From the NCBI GenBank assembly GCA_035457485.1, contig DATIBO010000006.1, positions 754,659 to 818,658 of the forward strand: DNA of 64,000 nt, in the 5' to 3' direction. Below are positions 9,837-35,801 of the stretch, piece by piece (position 1 is the first letter of the stretch; every line of letters starts with the position of its first letter). Source of the stretch: Candidatus Saccharimonadales bacterium (GTDB lineage Bacteria > Patescibacteriota > Saccharimonadia > Saccharimonadales > EFPC-124). A model generated the notes under the pieces. The model made no database searches. It saw only the letters and a program-made list of their open reading frames with translations, and was not told the DNA's origin. A program made the translations under genes and the position numbers.

Positions 9837-9911
9837 GGCCTCATCGTCTAACGGTTAGGACACAAGGTTCTCATCCTTGCAATCGGGGTTCGATTCCCCG
9901 TGAGGTCACCA
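9837..9911 (+). tRNA. tRNA-Glu (anticodon CTC), CCA encoded
   Basis: GGCCTCATCGTCTAACGGTTAGGACACAAGGTTCTCATCCTTGCAATCGGGGTTCGATTCCCCGTGAGGTCACCA. Anticodon stem CAAGG/CCTTG, loop TTCTCAT, T-arm CGGGG-TTCGATT-CCCCG. Confidence 0.9.
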
Positions 9912-15135: not shown

Positions 15136-15178
15136 TTATAACAAAAGTACTTGCATTATGCAATCACTTTATGTTATA
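15136..15178. promoter_or_regulatory. 43-bp dyad in the hxlR/SRPBCC divergent spacer (probable HxlR operator overlapping a promoter)
   Basis: Core TTGCAT-T-ATGCAA (15151-15163) and outer TTATAAC (15136-15142)/GTTATAA (15172-15178) share one centre at 15157. TATAAT lies at 15175-15180. Confidence 0.4.
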
Positions 15179-15187
15179 ATTTACTTT

Positions 15188-15667
15188 ATGAATGATCAAA
15201 ACTTTACACTAACAATCAATGTAAACAAGCCTGCAAGCGAAGTTTACAAAGCAATTACTAATGTTCGTGACTGGTGGTCTCAAGAGGTAGAAGGCGATAC
15301 TGACAAACAAGGCGCTGTTTTTTACTACCACTACAAAGACCTACATAACTGCGTACTTAAGGTGGCAGATTTACAGCCAAGCAAAAAAGTAGTTTGGCAC
15401 GTACTTTACAACCACTTTAGTTTTGTAAAAGACGAAAAAGAGTGGACGGGCGACGAAATTGTTTTCGAAATTAACGAAAAAGGTGACAAAACAGAAGTTA
15501 AATTTACCCACTTTGGCTTGACACCAAAATACGAATGCTACGGTGCCTGTTCTGAAGGTTGGGGAAACTACATCCTTGGTAGTCTAAAAGACTTGATCGA
15601 AACTGGTAAGGGTGAGCCCAACGTTGGCGAAGCGCAAACTAAATCAGAGGCGAAGCACGAAAAATAA
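15188..15667 (+). CDS. SRPBCC (Aha1/START-like) domain protein
   Basis: VYKAITNVRDWWSQEVEGDTDKQGAVF.. and ..CSEGWGNYILGSLKDLIETGKG. Start taken at MNDQNF (15188). Confidence 0.75.
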   Translation: MNDQNFTLTINVNKPASEVYKAITNVRDWWSQEVEGDTDKQGAVFYYHYKDLHNCVLKVADLQPSKKVVWHVLYNHFSFVKDEKEWTGDEIVFEINEKGDKTEVKFTHFGLTPKYECYGACSEGWGNYILGSLKDLIETGKGEPNVGEAQTKSEAKHEK

Positions 15668-16104
15668 TGCAAGATTTTAAAACATCATTTACAGTCGATA
15701 AAACTCCTGAAGAAGTTTTTGAAGCGATCACTCAACCGCGCAAGTGGTGGGCTAATACAATCGAAGGCGATACCGACAAGCTAGGTGGCGAGTTTACATT
15801 TAAAATGCTGCCGCATCATATTAGCAGCCACAAAATTACGGTTTTCGAACCTGGCAAAAAAGTAGTTTGGCACACAACCGACAGCCAAATTAACTTTGTG
15901 TCTGACAAGGAAGAGTGGAGGGGAACGGATATCGTTTTCGAAATTACTCCTAAAGGCGACAAAACTGAACTAAGTTTTGAGCATATCGGCCTTACGCCAA
16001 AATTAGCCTGCTTTAACGACTGCAAAGGCGCATGGAGCTTTTACATTAGCACCAGCCTGCGTGAGTTGATTGAAACCGGCAAAGGTCAGCCAACAATAAA
16101 CTAA
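15667..16104 (+). CDS. SRPBCC (Aha1/START-like) domain protein, paralog of the preceding gene
   Basis: Same motif pattern as the preceding gene (VFEAITQPRKWWANTIEGDTDKLGGEF.., CKGAWSFYISTSLRELIETGKG). ATGA-type overlap. Confidence 0.75.
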   Translation: MQDFKTSFTVDKTPEEVFEAITQPRKWWANTIEGDTDKLGGEFTFKMLPHHISSHKITVFEPGKKVVWHTTDSQINFVSDKEEWRGTDIVFEITPKGDKTELSFEHIGLTPKLACFNDCKGAWSFYISTSLRELIETGKGQPTIN

Positions 16105-16119
16105 ACTCTAATAAAGTAA

Positions 16120-16153
16120 ATAGCTCGCCCGAATCATGTGGCGAGCTATTTTT
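16120..16153 (+). terminator. intrinsic terminator of the SRPBCC operon
   Basis: ATAGCTCGCC/GGCGAGCTAT 10-bp stem, 10-nt loop, then TTTTT. Confidence 0.75.
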
Positions 16154-16220
16154 GTTTAAACGAACAAACCCGGACCACTGCATGAGCAGCCCGGGTGACC
16201 GACGGATGTCAGTGTTCGTC

Positions 16221-16742
16221 TTACTTGTCTTGCTTGGCCGCCGCGCGACTCAGCCTGCGCAGCTCCCGTTCTTGACAGAAGACCACGTAGGTTGCGACAC
16301 GTTCGGCGAGCGCCTGGGTCGGAACGCCGTAGACACCGCGTTCCGGCATGAATCGGTTGAGCGAGGCGCGGGGGAACTTGCGGTGGAACCAGCGGTTAGC
16401 CTCGTCTGAGCTCAGCCAGTTCACAAAACCGGCCGTGTGGCTGACGTCCCTCATCTTGGTGAGGTCGGCCAGGTACTCAGTAACCAGCTTGCGGCGCTTG
16501 CGAACCGTGTGGATCCAGCGGACGGCGACGCTCAGAGCGAGAATAGGGAAGACCACCATGGCGATCTTGTCCAGCACGGTGAGCTCGCCGCTCAGCGCGT
16601 TTTTGATCGGGGAAAACCACGGCCCGAGCCAGAGCAGAATGAGCCAGACACGGACGTTCGGCAATGAGCGGAACGGCACGCGGTCAAGCAGATCACCCCA
16701 GAACCAGCTCCAGGCATCTCCAACCAACTCGAACAGCTTCAT
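16221..16742 (-). CDS. hypothetical membrane protein on a high-GC (~60%) insert
   Basis: 173-aa ORF with G/C-ending codons throughout. Hydrophobic helices VRVWLILLWLGPWF and IAMVVFPILALSVAV, GAAAGG 7 nt before the ATG, hairpin 16168-16196 after the stop. Confidence 0.6.
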   Translation of the reverse strand: MKLFELVGDAWSWFWGDLLDRVPFRSLPNVRVWLILLWLGPWFSPIKNALSGELTVLDKIAMVVFPILALSVAVRWIHTVRKRRKLVTEYLADLTKMRDVSHTAGFVNWLSSDEANRWFHRKFPRASLNRFMPERGVYGVPTQALAERVATYVVFCQERELRRLSRAAAKQDK

Positions 16743-16816
16743 GTTGCGGCCTTTCGACGTTTGGACGAATAACTAATTTATACCATAAAAACAACAAAAA
16801 ATCTAGCATACGCTGA

Positions 16817-17017
16817 ACTAACTATCGTAGAGAGACTTACAATATTTTTGAAAGCTTTTTTAGAGCTTCGAACGCCTTTAAAGTTGAGCCCAACGCCTCG
16901 GGTGTGGGACTTGCAATCGCCAAATATTTTATAGAGCAGCAAGGTGGAACAATTGGTTTTACCTCCAAAGAAGGAAAGGGTAGTACGTTTTGGTTTGAAA
17001 TACCTATAAATAAATGA
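16817..17017 (+). pseudogene. 3'-terminal remnant of a histidine kinase (HATPase_c G1/F/G2 region only)
   Basis: Frame read by hand gives ..[58 protein letters not shown]. There is an in-frame stop at 16814 and no start or upstream kinase domains. Confidence 0.6.
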
Positions 17018-17031
17018 GTTAGAATCAAATC

Positions 17032-17385
17032 ATGATCACATACAAAAACATTGACGACTATATAAAAAGTTTTTCACCCGACGTGCAAACGGTTTTACAG
17101 AAAATCCGCCAAACTATTCATAAAGCCGAACCAAACGCCACCGAGACTATAAGTTATGGCCTCGCGACCTTTGATTTAAATAAAAAACATCTGGTTCATT
17201 TTGGAGCATTCAAAGAGCATATCGGTTTTTATCCTACTCCATCAGGGACTGCAAAATTCGTCGAACAACTTAAGCCTTACGTAACGTCAAAAGGCTCAGC
17301 AAGGTTTCCGTTAACCAAGCCAGTTCCTTATGATTTAATCGCTCAAATTACCAAATTTCGTGCCGCCGAAGTTACAAAAAAATAG
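17032..17385 (+). CDS. DUF1801 (YdhG-like) domain protein
   Basis: IDDYIKSFSPDVQTVLQKIRQTIHKAEPNATETISYG..HFGAFKEHIGFYPTPSG. Confidence 0.7.
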   Translation: MITYKNIDDYIKSFSPDVQTVLQKIRQTIHKAEPNATETISYGLATFDLNKKHLVHFGAFKEHIGFYPTPSGTAKFVEQLKPYVTSKGSARFPLTKPVPYDLIAQITKFRAAEVTKK

Positions 17386-17450: not shown

Positions 17451-18398
17451 TTATTGTTTGTGCTGATAGTACTCGCTAACAGTACAAAAACCGTTTGCGG
17501 TGTGATCGCAGGGTATAACCTGTTCAAACTCGCGGCCGTTATACCTTTGGAACTTCATGCCTTCGGCCATTGCATCCGGGGTTTTCTGGATTACAACAAT
17601 CACTTGCTCATCTGGGTTAACATCCCAAGGTGGGGTGCTCTCCGAGTGAGTCAAAGCCTTACCGCTTGCACGATACTTGTAAGTAACTTTGTCTCCGACC
17701 TTCAAACCTTGCATGCCAATTTGGTGCGGGCTGTCGTAAACAAATACGTCTGGTGCGATGTTATTAAAGGTCTGTTCGAACACTTTAACTTCATCTTTGC
17801 CATCAATAGTCGTCCCCATTTCAGATTTTAATGTGATGCTATTTTCAGATACAGCAACAACTTCACTGAACGCGCCACCAACAACTTTATCCTTGTTAAG
17901 TGGGTTGCGTGCCAGGGCTTCGTCAATCGCTTTGCCGTCAACTTGTATCTGAGCTTCTAGCTGACAATTACCCTTAACGATTTTAACGACATCTTCGTTT
18001 GTTAACTTAGAATCATTTTTAACTTTGTAGAAAAACGTATCGTTAGTTTTATCGCCAGTAACTACATTAAAAGCATTCTGAAAGTAACAGTTGTCGGCTT
18101 TTACTTCGACGATTCGTCCGTCACTTGTAGGTGTTTCACCGTTAAAAAACGCGTTAATCGCTGGCCAGCCCGCAACCGTAGCGTAAGAGGTTCCTGCCGC
18201 AAGAACTGTAAAAACAAACGCTGCAACGGCAATCGCCGGCTTAGTTAAAACTTTTTCCATAAAATTCTCCATAAATTGCTCACGCCAAGTCAGCTTGGGG
18301 TGATCTGCAATGTGGTTAACTATTTTGTTAGTAAAATCTGCGCTTAGCGGTCGCTGGGGTTTTGCGCTAGATTTTAAAAGATTTTCGATGTCCTTCAT
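17451..18398 (-). CDS. putative anti-sigma factor / membrane-anchored protein
   Basis: 4-nt overlap with the upstream ECF sigma gene. One TM helix (AIAVAAFVFTVLAAG) after a short cytoplasmic N-terminus. Confidence 0.5.
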   Translation of the reverse strand: MKDIENLLKSSAKPQRPLSADFTNKIVNHIADHPKLTWREQFMENFMEKVLTKPAIAVAAFVFTVLAAGTSYATVAGWPAINAFFNGETPTSDGRIVEVKADNCYFQNAFNVVTGDKTNDTFFYKVKNDSKLTNEDVVKIVKGNCQLEAQIQVDGKAIDEALARNPLNKDKVVGGAFSEVVAVSENSITLKSEMGTTIDGKDEVKVFEQTFNNIAPDVFVYDSPHQIGMQGLKVGDKVTYKYRASGKALTHSESTPPWDVNPDEQVIVVIQKTPDAMAEGMKFQRYNGREFEQVIPCDHTANGFCTVSEYYQHKQ

Positions 18399-18919
18399 GA
18401 CAACTCCTTTTTTAGTTCACGCTTAGCTCTGTTAATCCACCCTTTAACCGAACCTACTGGAGCAGAAAGCGCTAGGGCGATTTCCTCATAGCCCAGGCCT
18501 TGCCAGTAGTGTAAACTTATTGCCGCCTTATACCGGGGTTTTAATTTATGCACAGCTCTATGTAACTCGTCATATTGGGCTAACTTTTCGGGGCCGGGTT
18601 GCTTTGCCGCGATCGTTGCAAATACTTCGTTATCTGCTAAAACTTCGTATTTTCGCCGCCTAAGGAGGTCAAGGCATTTGTTGGTCGAAATTTTAAAAAG
18701 CCAGGTGCTAAATTTGTAATCTGTTTTATAGGATTTTAGTTTGTAATAGGCTGCAATAAAAGTTTCTTGAGCCATATCTTCGGCAGCGTCCTCGCTGCGC
18801 AGAATTGCAAAACAATGATGATAAATTGCGTTTTTATAACGGTCGACCAATTCGCCGTAACTAACTGAATCGCCGCTTAAACTTTGAGCTATGAGCTCGG
18901 CTTCATCTTTTTGTTGCAT
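18395..18919 (-). CDS. ECF-type RNA polymerase sigma-70 factor
   Basis: Region 2 (AEDMAQETFIAAYYKL...FSTWLFKISTNKCLDLLRRR) and region 4 (YEEIALALSAPVGSVKGWINRA). Confidence 0.85.
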   Translation of the reverse strand: MQQKDEAELIAQSLSGDSVSYGELVDRYKNAIYHHCFAILRSEDAAEDMAQETFIAAYYKLKSYKTDYKFSTWLFKISTNKCLDLLRRRKYEVLADNEVFATIAAKQPGPEKLAQYDELHRAVHKLKPRYKAAISLHYWQGLGYEEIALALSAPVGSVKGWINRAKRELKKELS

Positions 18920-27280: not shown

Positions 27281-28141
27281 ATGATTAGCAATAGCGTTTT
27301 ACCAGATCAGAGCGAATACTTACAGATCATAACAAATATTGCAGGTTTTCCAAAAAGCTTATATTTTAGTGGTAATTTACCTAAAAATAGGGTGAAAACA
27401 GTTTCTATAGTCGGAACACGCAAACCAACAGATTACGGCACCGAATTTGCGTATAAATTTGCTTACGAACTAGCAAAGCGGGGCATAGTAATTGTAAGCG
27501 GCCTAGCTTATGGAATTGATGCGATCGCCCATAAGGCGGCGCTAGATGCCGGCGGAACAACGATCGCTATACTTCCATCCGGCTTAAATAGAATTTATCC
27601 ATCGGGAAACGCAAAACTCGCAGATAGGATTGTTGAAAATGGCGGCTGTTTACTTACAAAATACGAACCAGATTCGCACCCATACAAATCGAGTTTTGTG
27701 CAGCGCAGTCAAATTGTATCTGGCATAGCTGACGGAGTTTTAGTGATAGAGGCAGGCGCAAAAAGCGGCACAATGCATACAGCCGAGTTTGCTCGGCGGC
27801 AGGGCAGAGTGGTCATGGCGCTTCCGGGCAACATCAATAGCGTAATGAGCGAGGGTTGTAACAACCTTATTAAAAAAGGAGCTGTGGCCATAACCGAAAC
27901 CGCCGATATTCTAAGTGCAATTGGATTCAAAAAACTTATTCAAACAACACTACCAGTCGGTTCAAACCCTCAAGAACAGATTATACTAAAGCTCATCACA
28001 TCTGGAGTTAACCAAACGGAACACCTTCAAAAACAAAGCAGCCTTAGTGCCGCGGAGCTTAACCAAGCGCTAACAATGCTAGAAATATCAGGCCAAATTA
28101 AGTCGATTAGCGCAGGCAAATGGGTTACAGGAAATCTATGA
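27281..28141 (+). CDS. dprA: DNA processing protein DprA
   Basis: VSIVGTRKPT..GLAYGIDAIAHKAALDAGGTTIAILPSGL..SGTMHTA. Confidence 0.85.
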   Translation: MISNSVLPDQSEYLQIITNIAGFPKSLYFSGNLPKNRVKTVSIVGTRKPTDYGTEFAYKFAYELAKRGIVIVSGLAYGIDAIAHKAALDAGGTTIAILPSGLNRIYPSGNAKLADRIVENGGCLLTKYEPDSHPYKSSFVQRSQIVSGIADGVLVIEAGAKSGTMHTAEFARRQGRVVMALPGNINSVMSEGCNNLIKKGAVAITETADILSAIGFKKLIQTTLPVGSNPQEQIILKLITSGVNQTEHLQKQSSLSAAELNQALTMLEISGQIKSISAGKWVTGNL

Positions 28142-32399: not shown

Positions 32400-35060
32400 A
32401 TGGGCCCATTCTTACTAGAAATTCTGAGCAAATGGTATATTTGGCTTCCGATAGCCGCAGTTTTTGCATACCTTGCGTTCCGCAATAATTTGCGCGCTAA
32501 AACAGTTGCCGATACTGAACATACTCTATTGATTCTTGAAATTCCACGAACAAACGACAAAAAAGAATTAGCCGCCGAACAGATGTTCGCCAGTTTACAT
32601 GGCATTTTGCGTGATAAAAAGGAACTACTGAGTCAAGGTGGGCTCCAAGAACATATTAGTTTTGAAATTGCATCAATCGATAAGCAGATCAGGTTTTACG
32701 TCTGGGTGCCAACTCACTTGCAAAACTTTCTAGAAGGCCAAATCTACGCACAGTATCCAACTGTACAGATCCACAAAGCAGACAGCGATTATACTGAGCG
32801 CGAGATTTTACAGCCGGTAATTTACTCGGCCGAGTTAGCCTTAACAGATAACGAGGCGTTACCAATCAAGACTTTTCAAAGCTTCGAAGTTGACCCGCTT
32901 GCTGCCGTAACAGCAACCTTAGCCAAACTCGAAGAACAGAATGAAGAAATATGGATCCAGGTTTTAGCTCGGCCAGTGTCAGATGGATGGCATTTTAAGT
33001 CAACCCGTTTTGCCAATAAACTAAAAGGGAAGGCTAACAGCGGAGTTGGTCACTTACTACTAGGACTACTCCAGGCCTTCTTTAAGCCGCCCGAGGCCAA
33101 AGATTCAAGTGCACCCGAGATTAGCGAACGCGACAAAAGCCGAATCAGTGAAATCGAAAAGAAAAGCGTAAAACTTGGCTACCAAGTTAAAATGCGAATT
33201 TTATATCTGGGAAATACCGAAAAAACAGCAAAACTACGCATGCAGGCAATTGTTGGAACATTCAAGCAATTTAATAGCACCAACCTTAATGGATTTCAGA
33301 TTAAAGGTGCAGCGTATGGCCAAGAGGGCATAGATAAATTCCGAGCGCGCTTTTTCATAGACAAAGGCTACATCTTAAACATTGAAGAGCTCGCTAGCGT
33401 TTACCACCTACCGCACACAACAGTAGAGACGCCGAACATCGTTTGGGCTAGCTCAAAAACGGCCGAGCCACCGGCAAAACTACCAATTATACTTGGCACG
33501 GACAGAGATAACGAGATAAGCGCATTCGGCTTAACAAACTTCAGAGGAATTAACCAGCAATTTGGATTATTCCGAGGCGATCGAGGCAGGCACGCTTATA
33601 TAATTGGTCAAACTGGAACCGGTAAATCGGGAATGCTCGAGCTTTTGGCGCTAAGTGATATTTTCCATAATCAAGGATATGCAATTATTGACCCGCACGG
33701 TGATTTTGCAATGGCAAATCTTAAGTTCATTCCACCGTCACGCATAAAAGATGTGGTTTACTTTAACCCGGCCGACATGCAGTTCCCGATTGGTTTCAAC
33801 CCAATGGAGGTAAGCGATCCAAACATGAAGAGCCATATCAGCTCCGAAGTTATTGGCGTCCTTAAACGCATGTTCGGCGACAGTTGGGGGCCGCGCTTGG
33901 AATATATTTTGCGTTACACGATTTTAGCTTTGCTTGATTACCCAAATACAACACTCCTCGATATCACCCGAATGCTAACCGATAAAAAATTCCGCAAGGC
34001 TGTAGTAGAAAATTGCCAAGATACTGTGGTTCGTCAGTTCTGGAATGTTGAGTTTGCTAGCTGGAACGACAAATTCTTAGCCGAAGCTATAAGCCCAGTA
34101 TTAAACAAAGTTGGAGCTTTCACTGCCAACCCAATTATTCGTAATATCATTGGTCAGCCAAAAAGTACATTTAACATTCGCAAAATTATGGACGAGGGCA
34201 AGATTTTGGTGGTTAACCTTTCTAAAGGTCTGATCGGTGAAGACAACGCCGGAATCTTAGGGTCTTTCCTTGTGACTAAGATTCAGTTGGCTGCGATGAG
34301 CCGCAGCGATATTCCTCTCATCGAAGATCGCAGACCGTTCTATTTATACGTAGATGAGTTCCAGAACTTTGCGACCGATTCGTTTGCCACTATTTTAAGC
34401 GAGGCACGCAAGTACGGCCTTAACTTGACCGTAGCCAACCAGTACATCAGCCAAATGGGCGAAACCGTTCGCGACGCAGTATTTGGTAACGTGGGAACAA
34501 CCATTTCTTTCCGCGTAAGTCCAGATGACTCTCAGATTCTGGGAAAACAGTTTGCGCCGCAATTTTTACCTGAAGACATCATGCAAATGGCAAACCGGCA
34601 CTTTGTAATTACTATGGTAATAAACGGCGAAAAAACACCCTCGTTCTCGGCTCGCACTTTAACATTGCCGCCAGCACAAACCAACTTTACCGAGCAGATT
34701 GTTCAAAATACCAGGCAAAATTACGCACGACCCGTTAACGACGTTGTAGCGGAGATCCAACAGAATGTTAATCCGACCCATAATCAGCAGGCGGTTACCG
34801 CGAGTAACAAGCCGAAGGAGCCTAAGCCAGATGAGGTTAAGCCACTACCGATAGTTAACGAAACAAAAATAGAACAAGCTAAACCTGCAGAGCAACCCGC
34901 ACCACAGAGCGAACCTGCGCTTACTGCCGCCGCCAGTGAGCCCGAAAGCGCCAGCAAAAAGCGGCGCCGACGCAGAAAGCGTAGTAAGAGCAAACAGGGG
35001 AGTGAAGTTACAACCGGCCCCGAGCCCCACAATGACAGTTCGTCTTTGAGTCTGCGCTAA
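32400..35060 (+). CDS. TraD/VirD4-like (type IV coupling protein-like) P-loop ATPase, membrane-anchored, basic low-complexity tail
   Basis: TM helix WYIWLPIAAVFAYLAF, Walker A GQTGTGKSG, Walker B-like FYLYVDEFQNFAT, LTVANQYISQ, C-terminal KKRRRRRKRSKSK. Confidence 0.65.
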   Translation: MGPFLLEILSKWYIWLPIAAVFAYLAFRNNLRAKTVADTEHTLLILEIPRTNDKKELAAEQMFASLHGILRDKKELLSQGGLQEHISFEIASIDKQIRFYVWVPTHLQNFLEGQIYAQYPTVQIHKADSDYTEREILQPVIYSAELALTDNEALPIKTFQSFEVDPLAAVTATLAKLEEQNEEIWIQVLARPVSDGWHFKSTRFANKLKGKANSGVGHLLLGLLQAFFKPPEAKDSSAPEISERDKSRISEIEKKSVKLGYQVKMRILYLGNTEKTAKLRMQAIVGTFKQFNSTNLNGFQIKGAAYGQEGIDKFRARFFIDKGYILNIEELASVYHLPHTTVETPNIVWASSKTAEPPAKLPIILGTDRDNEISAFGLTNFRGINQQFGLFRGDRGRHAYIIGQTGTGKSGMLELLALSDIFHNQGYAIIDPHGDFAMANLKFIPPSRIKDVVYFNPADMQFPIGFNPMEVSDPNMKSHISSEVIGVLKRMFGDSWGPRLEYILRYTILALLDYPNTTLLDITRMLTDKKFRKAVVENCQDTVVRQFWNVEFASWNDKFLAEAISPVLNKVGAFTANPIIRNIIGQPKSTFNIRKIMDEGKILVVNLSKGLIGEDNAGILGSFLVTKIQLAAMSRSDIPLIEDRRPFYLYVDEFQNFATDSFATILSEARKYGLNLTVANQYISQMGETVRDAVFGNVGTTISFRVSPDDSQILGKQFAPQFLPEDIMQMANRHFVITMVINGEKTPSFSARTLTLPPAQTNFTEQIVQNTRQNYARPVNDVVAEIQQNVNPTHNQQAVTASNKPKEPKPDEVKPLPIVNETKIEQAKPAEQPAPQSEPALTAAASEPESASKKRRRRRKRSKSKQGSEVTTGPEPHNDSSSLSLR

Positions 35061-35225
35061 AAAGGTAACTTGATTAGAGTGAACTCGCCCTAGTCATCAT
35101 CAAAGCAGGCGAGGAGTAAAAAGCGTTTGTCGGACGGACCGAACGCGAATCCCCTTTTAAATCGTGCGAAGCTTGCGGATACTTGACATCTAATCGTATT
35201 TGAACCTACTAAAATTATCTACCAC

Positions 35226-35242
35226 TAGAACAAAAATCGAAC
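35226..35242. repeat. 17-bp direct repeat copy 1 (TAGAACAAAAATCGAAC)
   Basis: Identical to 35762-35778. Confidence 0.85.
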
Positions 35243-35761
35243 ATGGCTATTGGAAATTATGCATGGCCGTAACGAAGTTATTATTTATATGCTAATTGAA
35301 ATAAATCTACTGCAAAATGAAGAGGTAGGCAAATTAAAAAACTAAAGAAAAAAACAGTGAAAAAGACGGGATTATAGGTAATGCAGGAAGCATAATCGGG
35401 ATAGATGTTATGTCGCACAATATATCTTTTACGACACTACATGTATAAATCAAAAACATGTACTTATTCATCTTTTAAGAGGTAGGGTATCTAATATATC
35501 TATAAAACTCATGTAAACTCTACTAAACAACCTTTGCTTATGCGTCATGCGATCAGGTTTACCGATTAATAAATGGATCTAGGTATAAGGTATGCGTTAT
35601 TTTGACTTTTCCACAGGCTATGTTAAAAATATGCATTTTGTTGTCATTTTTAGACATTTTTTCACACAACCTCCCCACCCTGATTCCCTGCCTCAAAACT
35701 TTCTATTTTAAATATAAGTATCAAAAATATTTTCTAGCGATGTTGATCATGAAAAAATTAA

Positions 35762-35778
35762 TAGAACAAAAATCGAAC
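35762..35778. repeat. 17-bp direct repeat copy 2 (TAGAACAAAAATCGAAC)
   Basis: Identical to 35226-35242, 536 bp away. Brackets AT-rich ORF-free DNA. Confidence 0.85.
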
Positions 35779-35801
35779 TAAAGAGAGTGAGAGAGTAGTG
35801 T

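Follow-up and report, generated by a model that had tools for sequence, protein, structure and literature searches.

A gene whose composition is alien to that of the chromosome around it raises a simple question: where does it come from, how much DNA came with it, and what did its arrival cost the recipient? We ask it here of a locus in Candidatus Saccharimonadales bacterium (GenBank assembly GCA_035457485.1), within a stretch of 64,000 nucleotides of contig DATIBO010000006.1 that is numbered from its first letter and called the window in what follows. On its minus strand the locus carries an open reading frame (ORF) for a protein of 173 amino acids (aa). An earlier inspection of these letters, made without any database search (the sequence-only reading below), had seen there a high-GC patch of about 0.6 kb, probably acquired from a high-GC donor. 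The explanation that we favour, with a probability of roughly 60%, is that the gene came laterally as a single-gene cassette from a mobile-element-like pool, that it entered by illegitimate recombination and that most of a kinase gene was deleted on this occasion or shortly afterwards. The gene itself can be described in one line:

16221..16742, minus strand: orphan ORF of 173 aa, intact; GC content 0.615, GC content at third codon positions (GC3) 0.81.

Against a GC content of 0.441 for the window (standard deviation 0.033 for windows of 522 nt), this ORF falls in the stretch that has the highest GC content of all 64 kb (z=5.3). The local G+C counts that had first drawn attention to the patch, 37/60 at 16261-16320 and 36/60 at 16561-16620, with 26/60 at 17101-17160 and 16/60 at 16981-17040 for its surroundings, were all exact on recount, and so were the coordinates of the one 173-aa minus-strand ORF that the patch was said to hold. 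In the 60 other ORFs of the window GC3 is 0.419±0.035 and does not exceed 0.49, which places the value of 0.81 at z≈11. The sequence-only reading had proposed to compare codon usage and tetranucleotides with the rest of the contig. Run against the 64-kb window, the comparison makes the patch an extreme outlier, with the top tetranucleotide distance of the window (z=7.0) and, for the ORF, a synonymous-codon likelihood at z=−5.1 within the window. The patch is the strongest compositional outlier of the 64 kb, and the claim that it is GC-rich and foreign is upheld. The codon positions of the ORF have a GC content of 0.61/0.43/0.81 (GC1/GC2/GC3), and this periodicity, GC3 > GC1 > GC2, is confined to its frame. 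That codon-position GC tracks genomic GC is an established relation, reportedly due to Muto and Osawa in 1987. The order found here is the signature of coding DNA from a genome of ~60% GC: the frame is therefore real, and it has not yet drifted towards the present genome. That the gene is foreign and was recently acquired, from a gene pool of roughly 60% GC, is well supported; that it stands at compositional equilibrium with a source of roughly 60% GC is supported.

What is the protein, and where else is it found? It begins with two hydrophobic helices and continues with a basic C-terminal part of ~95 aa. Hydropathy and the positive-inside rule suggest that the N-terminus is inside, that the two helices span the membrane and that the basic C-terminal domain of ~95 aa is cytoplasmic, in line with the single membrane-protein gene first proposed. 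Pfam, NCBIfam, PADLOC and PHROGs returned nothing significant for this protein, and the same resources, together with a sequence search of the PDB, assign no family to either member of what proved to be a pair. Indeed, a word-indexed search of 5.8 billion proteins matched the 173-aa protein to itself alone. An exhaustive HMMER scan of 1.84 billion cluster representatives gave two further entries, P0002 and P0003. P0002 (E=6e-32) was rejected: it is a tandem-repeat protein of 5,048 aa, without any single matching stretch, and its score is a summed-repeat artefact. P0003, the sole homolog, has 168 aa, is co-linear with the target and is 30% identical to it over 149 residues. The two proteins have in common an N-terminal LL…PFRSLP, the two hydrophobic helices, an RRK stop-transfer cluster and a C-terminal motif, F(V/L)xWL…NxW…P.A.N…GVxGVP…LxER..TY. 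Their coding sequences, once codon-aligned, are 47% identical. A profile built on both found no third member, and no homolog turned up in the PDB, in IMG/VR, among the PLSDB plasmids or among the INPHARED phages. Phage and plasmid collections and IMG/VR, when queried with P0001, P0003, profile A1, the DNA that encodes P0003 (contig L002) and the pattern of the 3' element described below, gave only negative results. No ortholog of the gene was found for related genomes in the databases searched. The BLAST-type check that had been proposed for the ORF comes down to a self match plus one protein, 30% identical, on a contig of 1.3 kb.

This contig, L002, is a Logan contig of 1,335 bp from run SRR21686406. 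It reads:

L002, in order: a 5' fragment of tRNA-Glu; a spacer of 29% GC; ORF1 (P0003, GC3 0.80); a hairpin region; a spacer of 39% GC; ORF2 (GC3 0.83), which runs off the end of the contig.

The sole homolog is likewise a GC-rich ORF framed by AT-rich DNA. The contrast between coding and non-coding DNA on L002, where GC3 is at least 0.80 in both ORFs and the spacers have 29-39% GC, is unusually large. In synonymous-codon usage the target correlates with the two L002 ORFs at r=0.75 and 0.72, as against 0.33 with the genes of the window, while ORF1 and ORF2 correlate with each other at r=0.93. On these correlations, the cassette and L002 plausibly come from one kind of gene pool. ORF2 matches phrog_1383 ('virion structural protein', E=2e-17), bears a weak resemblance to LemA and, in tblastn, gives weak matches (~26% identity) to Vibrio phages, whose records are genomes of 111-121 kb, and to a Sinorhizobium phage of 469 kb. 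A tRNA adjoining small, separately transcribed genes was counted as a further phage-like or mobile-element-like trait. The two promoter regions of L002 (38-177 and 760-859) are alike (score 17 vs 9.1±1.6, p<0.001), as expected of a genome that reuses one promoter type. No longer relative of L002 was found in IMG/VR, the JGI metagenome contigs or INPHARED.

With this homolog at hand, the unit that was imported turns out to be larger than the patch, which had been given an extent of 16154-16772. Read from the sequence, it would be a self-contained cassette of promoter, ORF and terminator, at ~16150-16822 (~0.67 kb), that also takes in an AT-rich promoter and 5' untranslated region (5'UTR) up to ~16822; the composition profile does not flag this AT-rich part. 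On either side of the ORF we have:

16743..16822, minus strand: AT-rich promoter and 5'UTR of the cassette, with a ribosome-binding site GAAAGG at 16750-16755, an extended −10 element, TGGTATAAA, at 16777-16785, and an upstream T-tract.

16154..16221, minus strand: structured 3' end and predicted intrinsic terminator (terminator scan; −33.1 kcal/mol, z=−4.9; its counterpart on L002 −30.1 kcal/mol, z=−6.2).

Both have counterparts beside P0003. The region 16743..16822 is homologous to that upstream of the L002 homolog, up to ~16822. Over the 100 nt that precede the start codons the two loci align with a score of 20, as compared with 11.1±2.0 for dinucleotide shuffles (p=0.003); no 100-mer of the 2,556 taken from the window reaches this score, and the upstream regions of 61 other genes attain 15 at most. 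The 3' flanks, also of 100 nt, score 18 (shuffles 8.2±1.5; maximum 14 among the downstream regions of other genes), and their alignment includes CGGGTTTGTTCGTTT, identical at 15/15 positions. Cross-comparisons of 5' with 3' flanks, made as controls, were not significant. At both loci GTATAAA is found 31-34 nt, and CGAAAGGC 7-8 nt, before the ATG; the GAAAGG site of the cassette lies 7 nt before it. The extended −10 element and its T-tract resemble at least one native promoter. Together, this promoter element with its T-tract, the GAAAGG site and a strong predicted terminator suggest that the gene would be expressed in its present setting.

The 3' end has a more elaborate shape than the 'own hairpin', ACCCGG…CCGGGT at 16168-16196, that had been noticed just past the stop codon. 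The position of this hairpin was exact, but it does not stand alone: it is the second of two hairpins in a larger conserved structure. An outer clamp is formed by 16214-16221, just after the stop codon, pairing with 16158-16165 in the tail (core ACGAAC/GUUCGU). Within it stand hairpin 1 (16198-16213) and hairpin 2 (16168-16196); beyond it comes a tail rich in U. The 3' region of the L002 homolog has the same folded architecture. Hairpin 1 occupies the same position at both loci with a wholly different sequence, whereas hairpin 2 differs by one compensatory change, G-C to A-U, and four wobble-compatible ones, these changes of pairs having been counted by hand from the two folds (MAFFT misaligned the 5' half). 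A sub-threshold Rfam match to Thr_leader over the back-to-back terminators (16114-16245, minus strand; E=0.004, with 29 bits where the gathering score is 55) was judged spurious, the product of stacked hairpins.

Where, then, does native DNA end and begin again? Two features set the limits:

16118..16153, plus strand: terminator hairpin of the SRPBCC operon, with perfect arms of 12 nt (16118-16129/16140-16151) and a T-run; −18.7 kcal/mol, z=−5.2.

16817..17016, plus strand: histidine-kinase pseudogene, the last 66 codons and the stop; Pfam PF02518, profile positions 56-109/111, E=2e-9.

The SRPBCC operon terminator is the left limit of native sequence, and the terminator of the cassette abuts it. 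At the other edge, homology with L002 stops at ~16822 and kinase homology starts no later than 16832; the 5' edge of the cassette therefore meets the truncation point of the kinase within ~10 nt. What is left of the kinase (16817-17014, plus-strand frame 3) is the second half of HATPase_c only. Without start codon, HisKA or sensor domain, and with an incomplete HATPase_c, it is a pseudogene remnant and no longer a histidine kinase, and the decapitated kinase described by the sequence-only reading is confirmed. It is 36-38% identical to the other kinases of the window and has a GC3 of 0.33, like the surrounding genome. Because its composition is native and its identity to these kinases no higher, it is a native gene that has lost its front, not a recent duplicate. 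The remnant is still an open frame of 66 codons with native composition, which fits a recent event. The meeting of the two edges lends support to the association, proposed at the outset, between insertion and loss of the kinase: the anatomy of the locus looks like that expected of an insertion with an accompanying deletion.

An insertion may leave a scar, and the sequence-only reading had seen one in an imperfect direct repeat of 14 nt, 16154-16167 and 16759-16772. The positions are exact and the copies do match at 11/14, but as an insertion boundary the pair fails: at least 11 matches arise in 17% of shuffles and in 21% of real-sequence controls. One of the copies is the tail of the terminator. 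The patch is not flanked by terminal inverted repeats and its ORF has no match among transposase families, so that it qualifies neither as an insertion sequence (IS) element nor as a miniature inverted-repeat transposable element (MITE). For Pfam, what is said here and below of the window holds for the 25 families listed among the 78 that its ORFs match. In this scope, neither a recombinase or transposase nor a significant repeat or an att-like site came to light, and this absence points to illegitimate, that is non-site-specific, recombination as the way in which it would have entered the Saccharimonadales chromosome.

Putting these elements together, we propose the following course of events. 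The segment 16150-16822 would be a minus-strand transcription unit of a single gene, acquired laterally and recently, and made of a promoter of sigma-70 type that is AT-rich and has an extended −10, a short 5'UTR with GAAAGG, the GC-rich ORF of 173 aa and a structured intrinsic terminator. It may have arrived as one piece from a gene pool with ~60% GC coding DNA. L002 would belong to the same pool, most likely one of phage or other mobile-element DNA and not of actinobacterial chromosomes. Saccharibacteria are naturally competent by experiment, through ComEC, DprA and ComFC (PMC10633639), and DprA is encoded in the window (27281-28141); hence we infer that the uptake of free DNA by the competence system is a plausible route. 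The cassette would have landed between the terminator of the SRPBCC operon and a native histidine-kinase gene, of which the first ~85% (as judged from the kinases of 498-571 aa in the window) would have been deleted in the same event or soon after. Its product would be a small protein of the inner membrane, with two transmembrane helices, both termini inside and a C-terminal domain that is basic and cytoplasmic. From its topology, and from the analogy with phage morons discussed below, the best guess at its function is an accessory or protective role at the membrane, for example in excluding incoming phage or DNA, though we regard even this role as rather unlikely.

Could the locus be explained otherwise? 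A composition that switches abruptly within 600 bp of a metagenome-assembled genome (MAG) brings to mind an assembly chimera, or a contaminant fragment stitched into a Saccharimonadales contig. However, the identical protein is recorded at NCBI as 'MAG TPA: hypothetical protein VLA77_04455 [Candidatus Saccharimonadales bacterium]', on a contig of 889 kb (a record that bears out the early guess of a Saccharibacteria-type genome), and an independent Logan assembly, that of run SRR25158331, carries the gene on a contig of 130 kb. The 20,522 Logan bases that were retrieved equal positions 6221-26742 of the window with zero mismatches and span both junctions, so that the mis-assembly which the sequence-only reading had named as its own possible undoing is unlikely. 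Both sides belong to the same genome, no repeat able to mislead an assembler exists at either junction, and the ORF is intact and neatly framed by promoter and terminator. Since two false junctions would have to recur in two assemblers, with no repeat there to account for them, a chimera is practically excluded. Hardly more credible is the idea that the gene is native and vertically inherited, its odd composition being maintained by selection, or else that it is a chance ORF in GC-rich non-coding DNA. Stop codons are scarce in such DNA, and overlapping ORFs of 76-142 aa do exist in other frames or on the other strand. Yet the codon periodicity is specific to the frame of the target, and a co-linear homolog of the same length keeps the motifs of the protein though its DNA is so different. 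Besides, no ortholog exists in any other Saccharimonadales genome searched; orthologs at the same locus in relatives, which had been named as the sign of vertical inheritance, are absent from the databases, and this absence argues against it. We also considered a site-specific gene cassette, with the 3' clamp structure (CGAAC…GTTCG) as an attC-like recombination site whose core sites would be the imperfect direct repeats TTRTTCGTYYAAAC, one in the 5'UTR and the other in the tail. The likeness to integron cassettes is there: a small, often orphan, single ORF and, after it, a structured inverted repeat of ~60-140 nt that is imperfect and ends in AAC…GTT. The 3' element, of ~65 nt, is within the size range of attC, it is conserved in structure with a compensatory change and it ends in AAC…GTT; a similar motif occurs in the 5'UTR and in the 3' tail at both loci, and L002 has two single-gene units in succession. 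The details fit poorly. The consensus RYYYAAC/GTTRRRY is matched at 5/7 only (GACGAAC/GTTCGTT in the window, AACGAAC/GTTCGTT in L002), just the AAC/GTT triplets being in agreement, while the branched fold of the 3' end, asymmetric as it is, differs from the R/L-box stem of attC. The direct repeat is no better than chance would give. The unit brings a promoter of its own, unlike typical integron cassettes; there is no integrase among the listed families, no array or further copy of the 3' element in the 64-kb window, and no further copy in IMG/VR; and a bidirectional terminator, too, would show a hairpin clamped between A-rich and U-rich tracts. We find the attC reading very unlikely, and no better chance is given to its bolder version, in which the window cassette and L002 would exemplify a hitherto unrecognised class of mobile units, self-contained and of a single gene, each with an AT-rich promoter, a GC-rich, fast-evolving ORF and a Y-shaped 3' element (a CGAACA/TGTTCG clamp with two hairpins) acting as terminator and recombination site. 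If true, such units would move between phage and episymbiont genomes without a linked recombinase, as a promoter-bearing analogue of integron cassettes in Patescibacteria.

The nature of the donor is another matter. The candidate that comes first to mind, and that the sequence-only reading had put forward, is the chromosome of an actinobacterial host: high-GC DNA released by the host would be taken up by its epibiont and a fragment integrated. The composition fits a donor of 60-65% GC, and the Saccharibacteria in culture grow on Actinobacteria and are naturally competent (PMC10633639), with DprA encoded in the window. The searches gave this donor no homology support. They brought up no actinobacterial, plasmid or phage homolog, and indeed no other cellular one, among 5.8×10^9 or 1.84×10^9 proteins, although Actinobacteria are densely sampled. 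Furthermore, the promoter with its 5'UTR and the terminator of the cassette are AT-rich and shared with L002, where the spacers have 29-39% GC; we know of no actinobacterial intergenic DNA as AT-rich as this. Direct transfer from the host is, in our opinion, decidedly unlikely. Transfer within the phylum is unlikely too, if somewhat less so: L002 would come from a Saccharibacterium of higher GC content, from other Patescibacteria or from a mobile element of theirs, and the cassette would have passed between epibionts with signals that already worked. In its favour, the tRNA-Glu fragment of L002 is 84% identical to the tRNA-Glu of the window, its ribosome-binding site and its style of terminator match those of the cassette, and the core of its promoters, TTTTATTGTAT, is also found upstream of the native der gene, the second of these promoters scoring highest against native upstream regions. 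However, neither a tRNA gene nor an extended −10 promoter is distinctive, the target itself is the one Saccharimonadales protein that matches the family, and a gap of 30 points in GC content between coding and spacer DNA is not known from any Saccharibacterium.

Several of these facts count against the explanation that we prefer, the lateral arrival of a cassette from a mobile-element-like pool. L002 could be an element of Saccharibacteria, or a relative of higher GC content, rather than a phage of a high-GC host: the promoter core shared with der and the affinity of its second promoter for native upstream regions go in that direction. L002 is only 1.3 kb long, and its assignment to phages comes from one LemA-like profile match and weak phage matches at 26% identity. 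The promoter, the ribosome-binding site and the terminator of the cassette are consensus-level predictions, and a strict two-hexamer scan did not flag the promoter. With no empty-site relative, insertion plus deletion is read from the anatomy of the locus rather than observed. The AlphaFold2 model, made from an alignment of two sequences, is unusable (pLDDT 54, pTM 0.28). Finally, the resemblance of the cassette to a moron remains an analogy: it would not be one in the strict sense, as no prophage genes are seen nearby.

How does the locus compare with known mobile units? A moron, in the concept of Juhala and Hendrix as summarized in PMC4378225, is a single ORF with its own promoter and terminator and with a deviant composition; its mechanism of acquisition is unknown and its function is often unknown or protective. 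The cassette is alike in being a single coding region with its own promoter and factor-independent terminator, as predicted at the level of consensus, and in having a composition unlike that of the adjacent genes, as measured above by GC3, tetranucleotides and codon usage. It differs in its place. Morons sit between two genes of a phage or prophage, while the cassette sits in a bacterial chromosome, where it replaced part of a host gene; its neighbours are SRPBCC, kinase-remnant, DUF1801 and sigma-factor genes, with no phage family among those listed. Closer in this respect are the transferred genes that have not yet been ameliorated, also named 'genomic islets', which share with it a sharp break in GC, GC3 and codon usage, orphan status and a location in a variable accessory region. 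Compositionally atypical transferred genes are the subject of the Lawrence and Ochman framework. Here the unit is unusually small (one gene, ~0.67 kb) and comes without an IS element or integrase, without a tRNA gene next to it and without a significant direct repeat; the regulatory flanks, AT-rich, are part of it, so that the compositional boundary is not the boundary of the insert. Nor does it look like a classical genomic island: 6.2 kb separate it from the nearest tRNA gene (Glu, 9837-9911), the repeat is no more than chance would give and no integrase is listed. Finally, the layout of the protein recalls the class II holins and other small membrane proteins of phages, by its two N-terminal transmembrane helices, its highly basic cytoplasmic C-terminus and its possible origin in a phage-related pool. 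It is longer than these, however, with 173 aa and a C-terminal domain of ~95 aa, and has no adjacent endolysin; a holin under a constitutive promoter would be toxic. No significant match to a holin family was found in Pfam, PHROG, NCBIfam or PADLOC, and there is no lysin in the neighbourhood.

The native genes that frame the cassette are these:

15158-15667 and 15667-16104, plus strand: two tandem genes of the SRPBCC/AHSA1 family, left neighbour; Pfam PF08327, E=7e-8 and 2e-9.

17032..17385, plus strand: DUF1801 gene, right neighbour, starting 15 nt past the stop codon of the kinase remnant; Pfam PF08818, E=3.5e-13.

The sequence-only reading had suggested looking at this junction in relatives, where it might be empty or hold an intact kinase. 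Neither was found; searches via the SRPBCC genes, a 315-aa ORF further right and the DUF1801 gene uncovered no empty site. Orthologs of DUF1801 at 74-80% identity have differing contexts, never with a kinase upstream and none with a kinase remnant. In one relative (L044) the order DUF1801, S51 peptidase, 571-aa kinase is kept, at 72-79% nucleotide identity, and the sigma-70/315-aa pair (17451-18919) is missing; the 109 nt upstream of its DUF1801 gene are unrelated to the window. A resemblance of this edge of L044 to the promoter and 5'UTR of the cassette was tried and rejected as not significant (p=0.38 and 0.16). In two others (L043 and L045), DUF1801 comes after mraY, in the order mraY, (NUDIX), DUF1801, VOC-like gene, and more distant orthologs are not syntenic. 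The region from ~14.7 to 19 kb is a plastic accessory zone, a hotspot of rearrangement and of gene gain and loss. Elsewhere the window has the genes of an ordinary chromosome (among them TopA, the mraW-mraY-ftsW cluster, Der and Pth), and no prophage genes were seen near the cassette among the families listed.

Within this zone, the SRPBCC/AHSA1 genes, which have a gene for an HxlR regulator beside them, are like the rest of the window in composition. Among GTDB species representatives, the relatives closest to them belong to Bacteroidota (Mucilaginibacter, Flavobacterium; 43-52% aa identity) and none to Saccharimonadales; the two genes may be an older lateral acquisition despite their native composition. 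On the right, the 315-aa ORF (17451-18398, minus strand) is downstream of a gene for an ECF-type sigma factor (18395-18919), which it overlaps by 4 nt. It has no Pfam match and no relatives in the JGI metagenome contigs, and may encode a lineage-specific anti-sigma factor or a membrane partner. Further along the window, the DprA gene (DNA_processg_A, E=1e-69) lies directly upstream of topA, and a TrwB/TraG-like coupling ATPase of 886 aa is encoded at 32400-35060; both are related to DNA transfer and lie within 20 kb of the insert. Between the gene of this ATPase and that of a 302-aa protein, a stretch of 740 nt, 35061-35801, is AT-rich, has no ORF above 59 aa and no Rfam match, and is the second-strongest tetranucleotide outlier of the window (z≈4.6).

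What does this locus teach us? It is an event of a known kind, a textbook case rather than a new mechanism, that involves an orphan family of two members and, probably, a mobile element as donor. Its main value is that the anatomy is now corrected, to a cassette that carries its signals with it and a repeat no better than chance, and that it imposes caution about the host as donor. Saccharibacteria live fastened to other bacteria and make do with very small genomes; the way in which they acquire genes, and the donors of these genes, bear on their adaptation. We have here a very clean recent acquisition: an undrifted single gene with ready-made expression signals, which cost its recipient a sensor kinase. 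Two lessons of prudence follow, namely that the obvious donor, an actinobacterial host, has no support from homology, and that a boundary drawn from composition makes the import look smaller than it is. Should the two-member family turn out to be derived from phages, it would suggest the phage DNA of the community as a source of genes for these naturally competent episymbionts.

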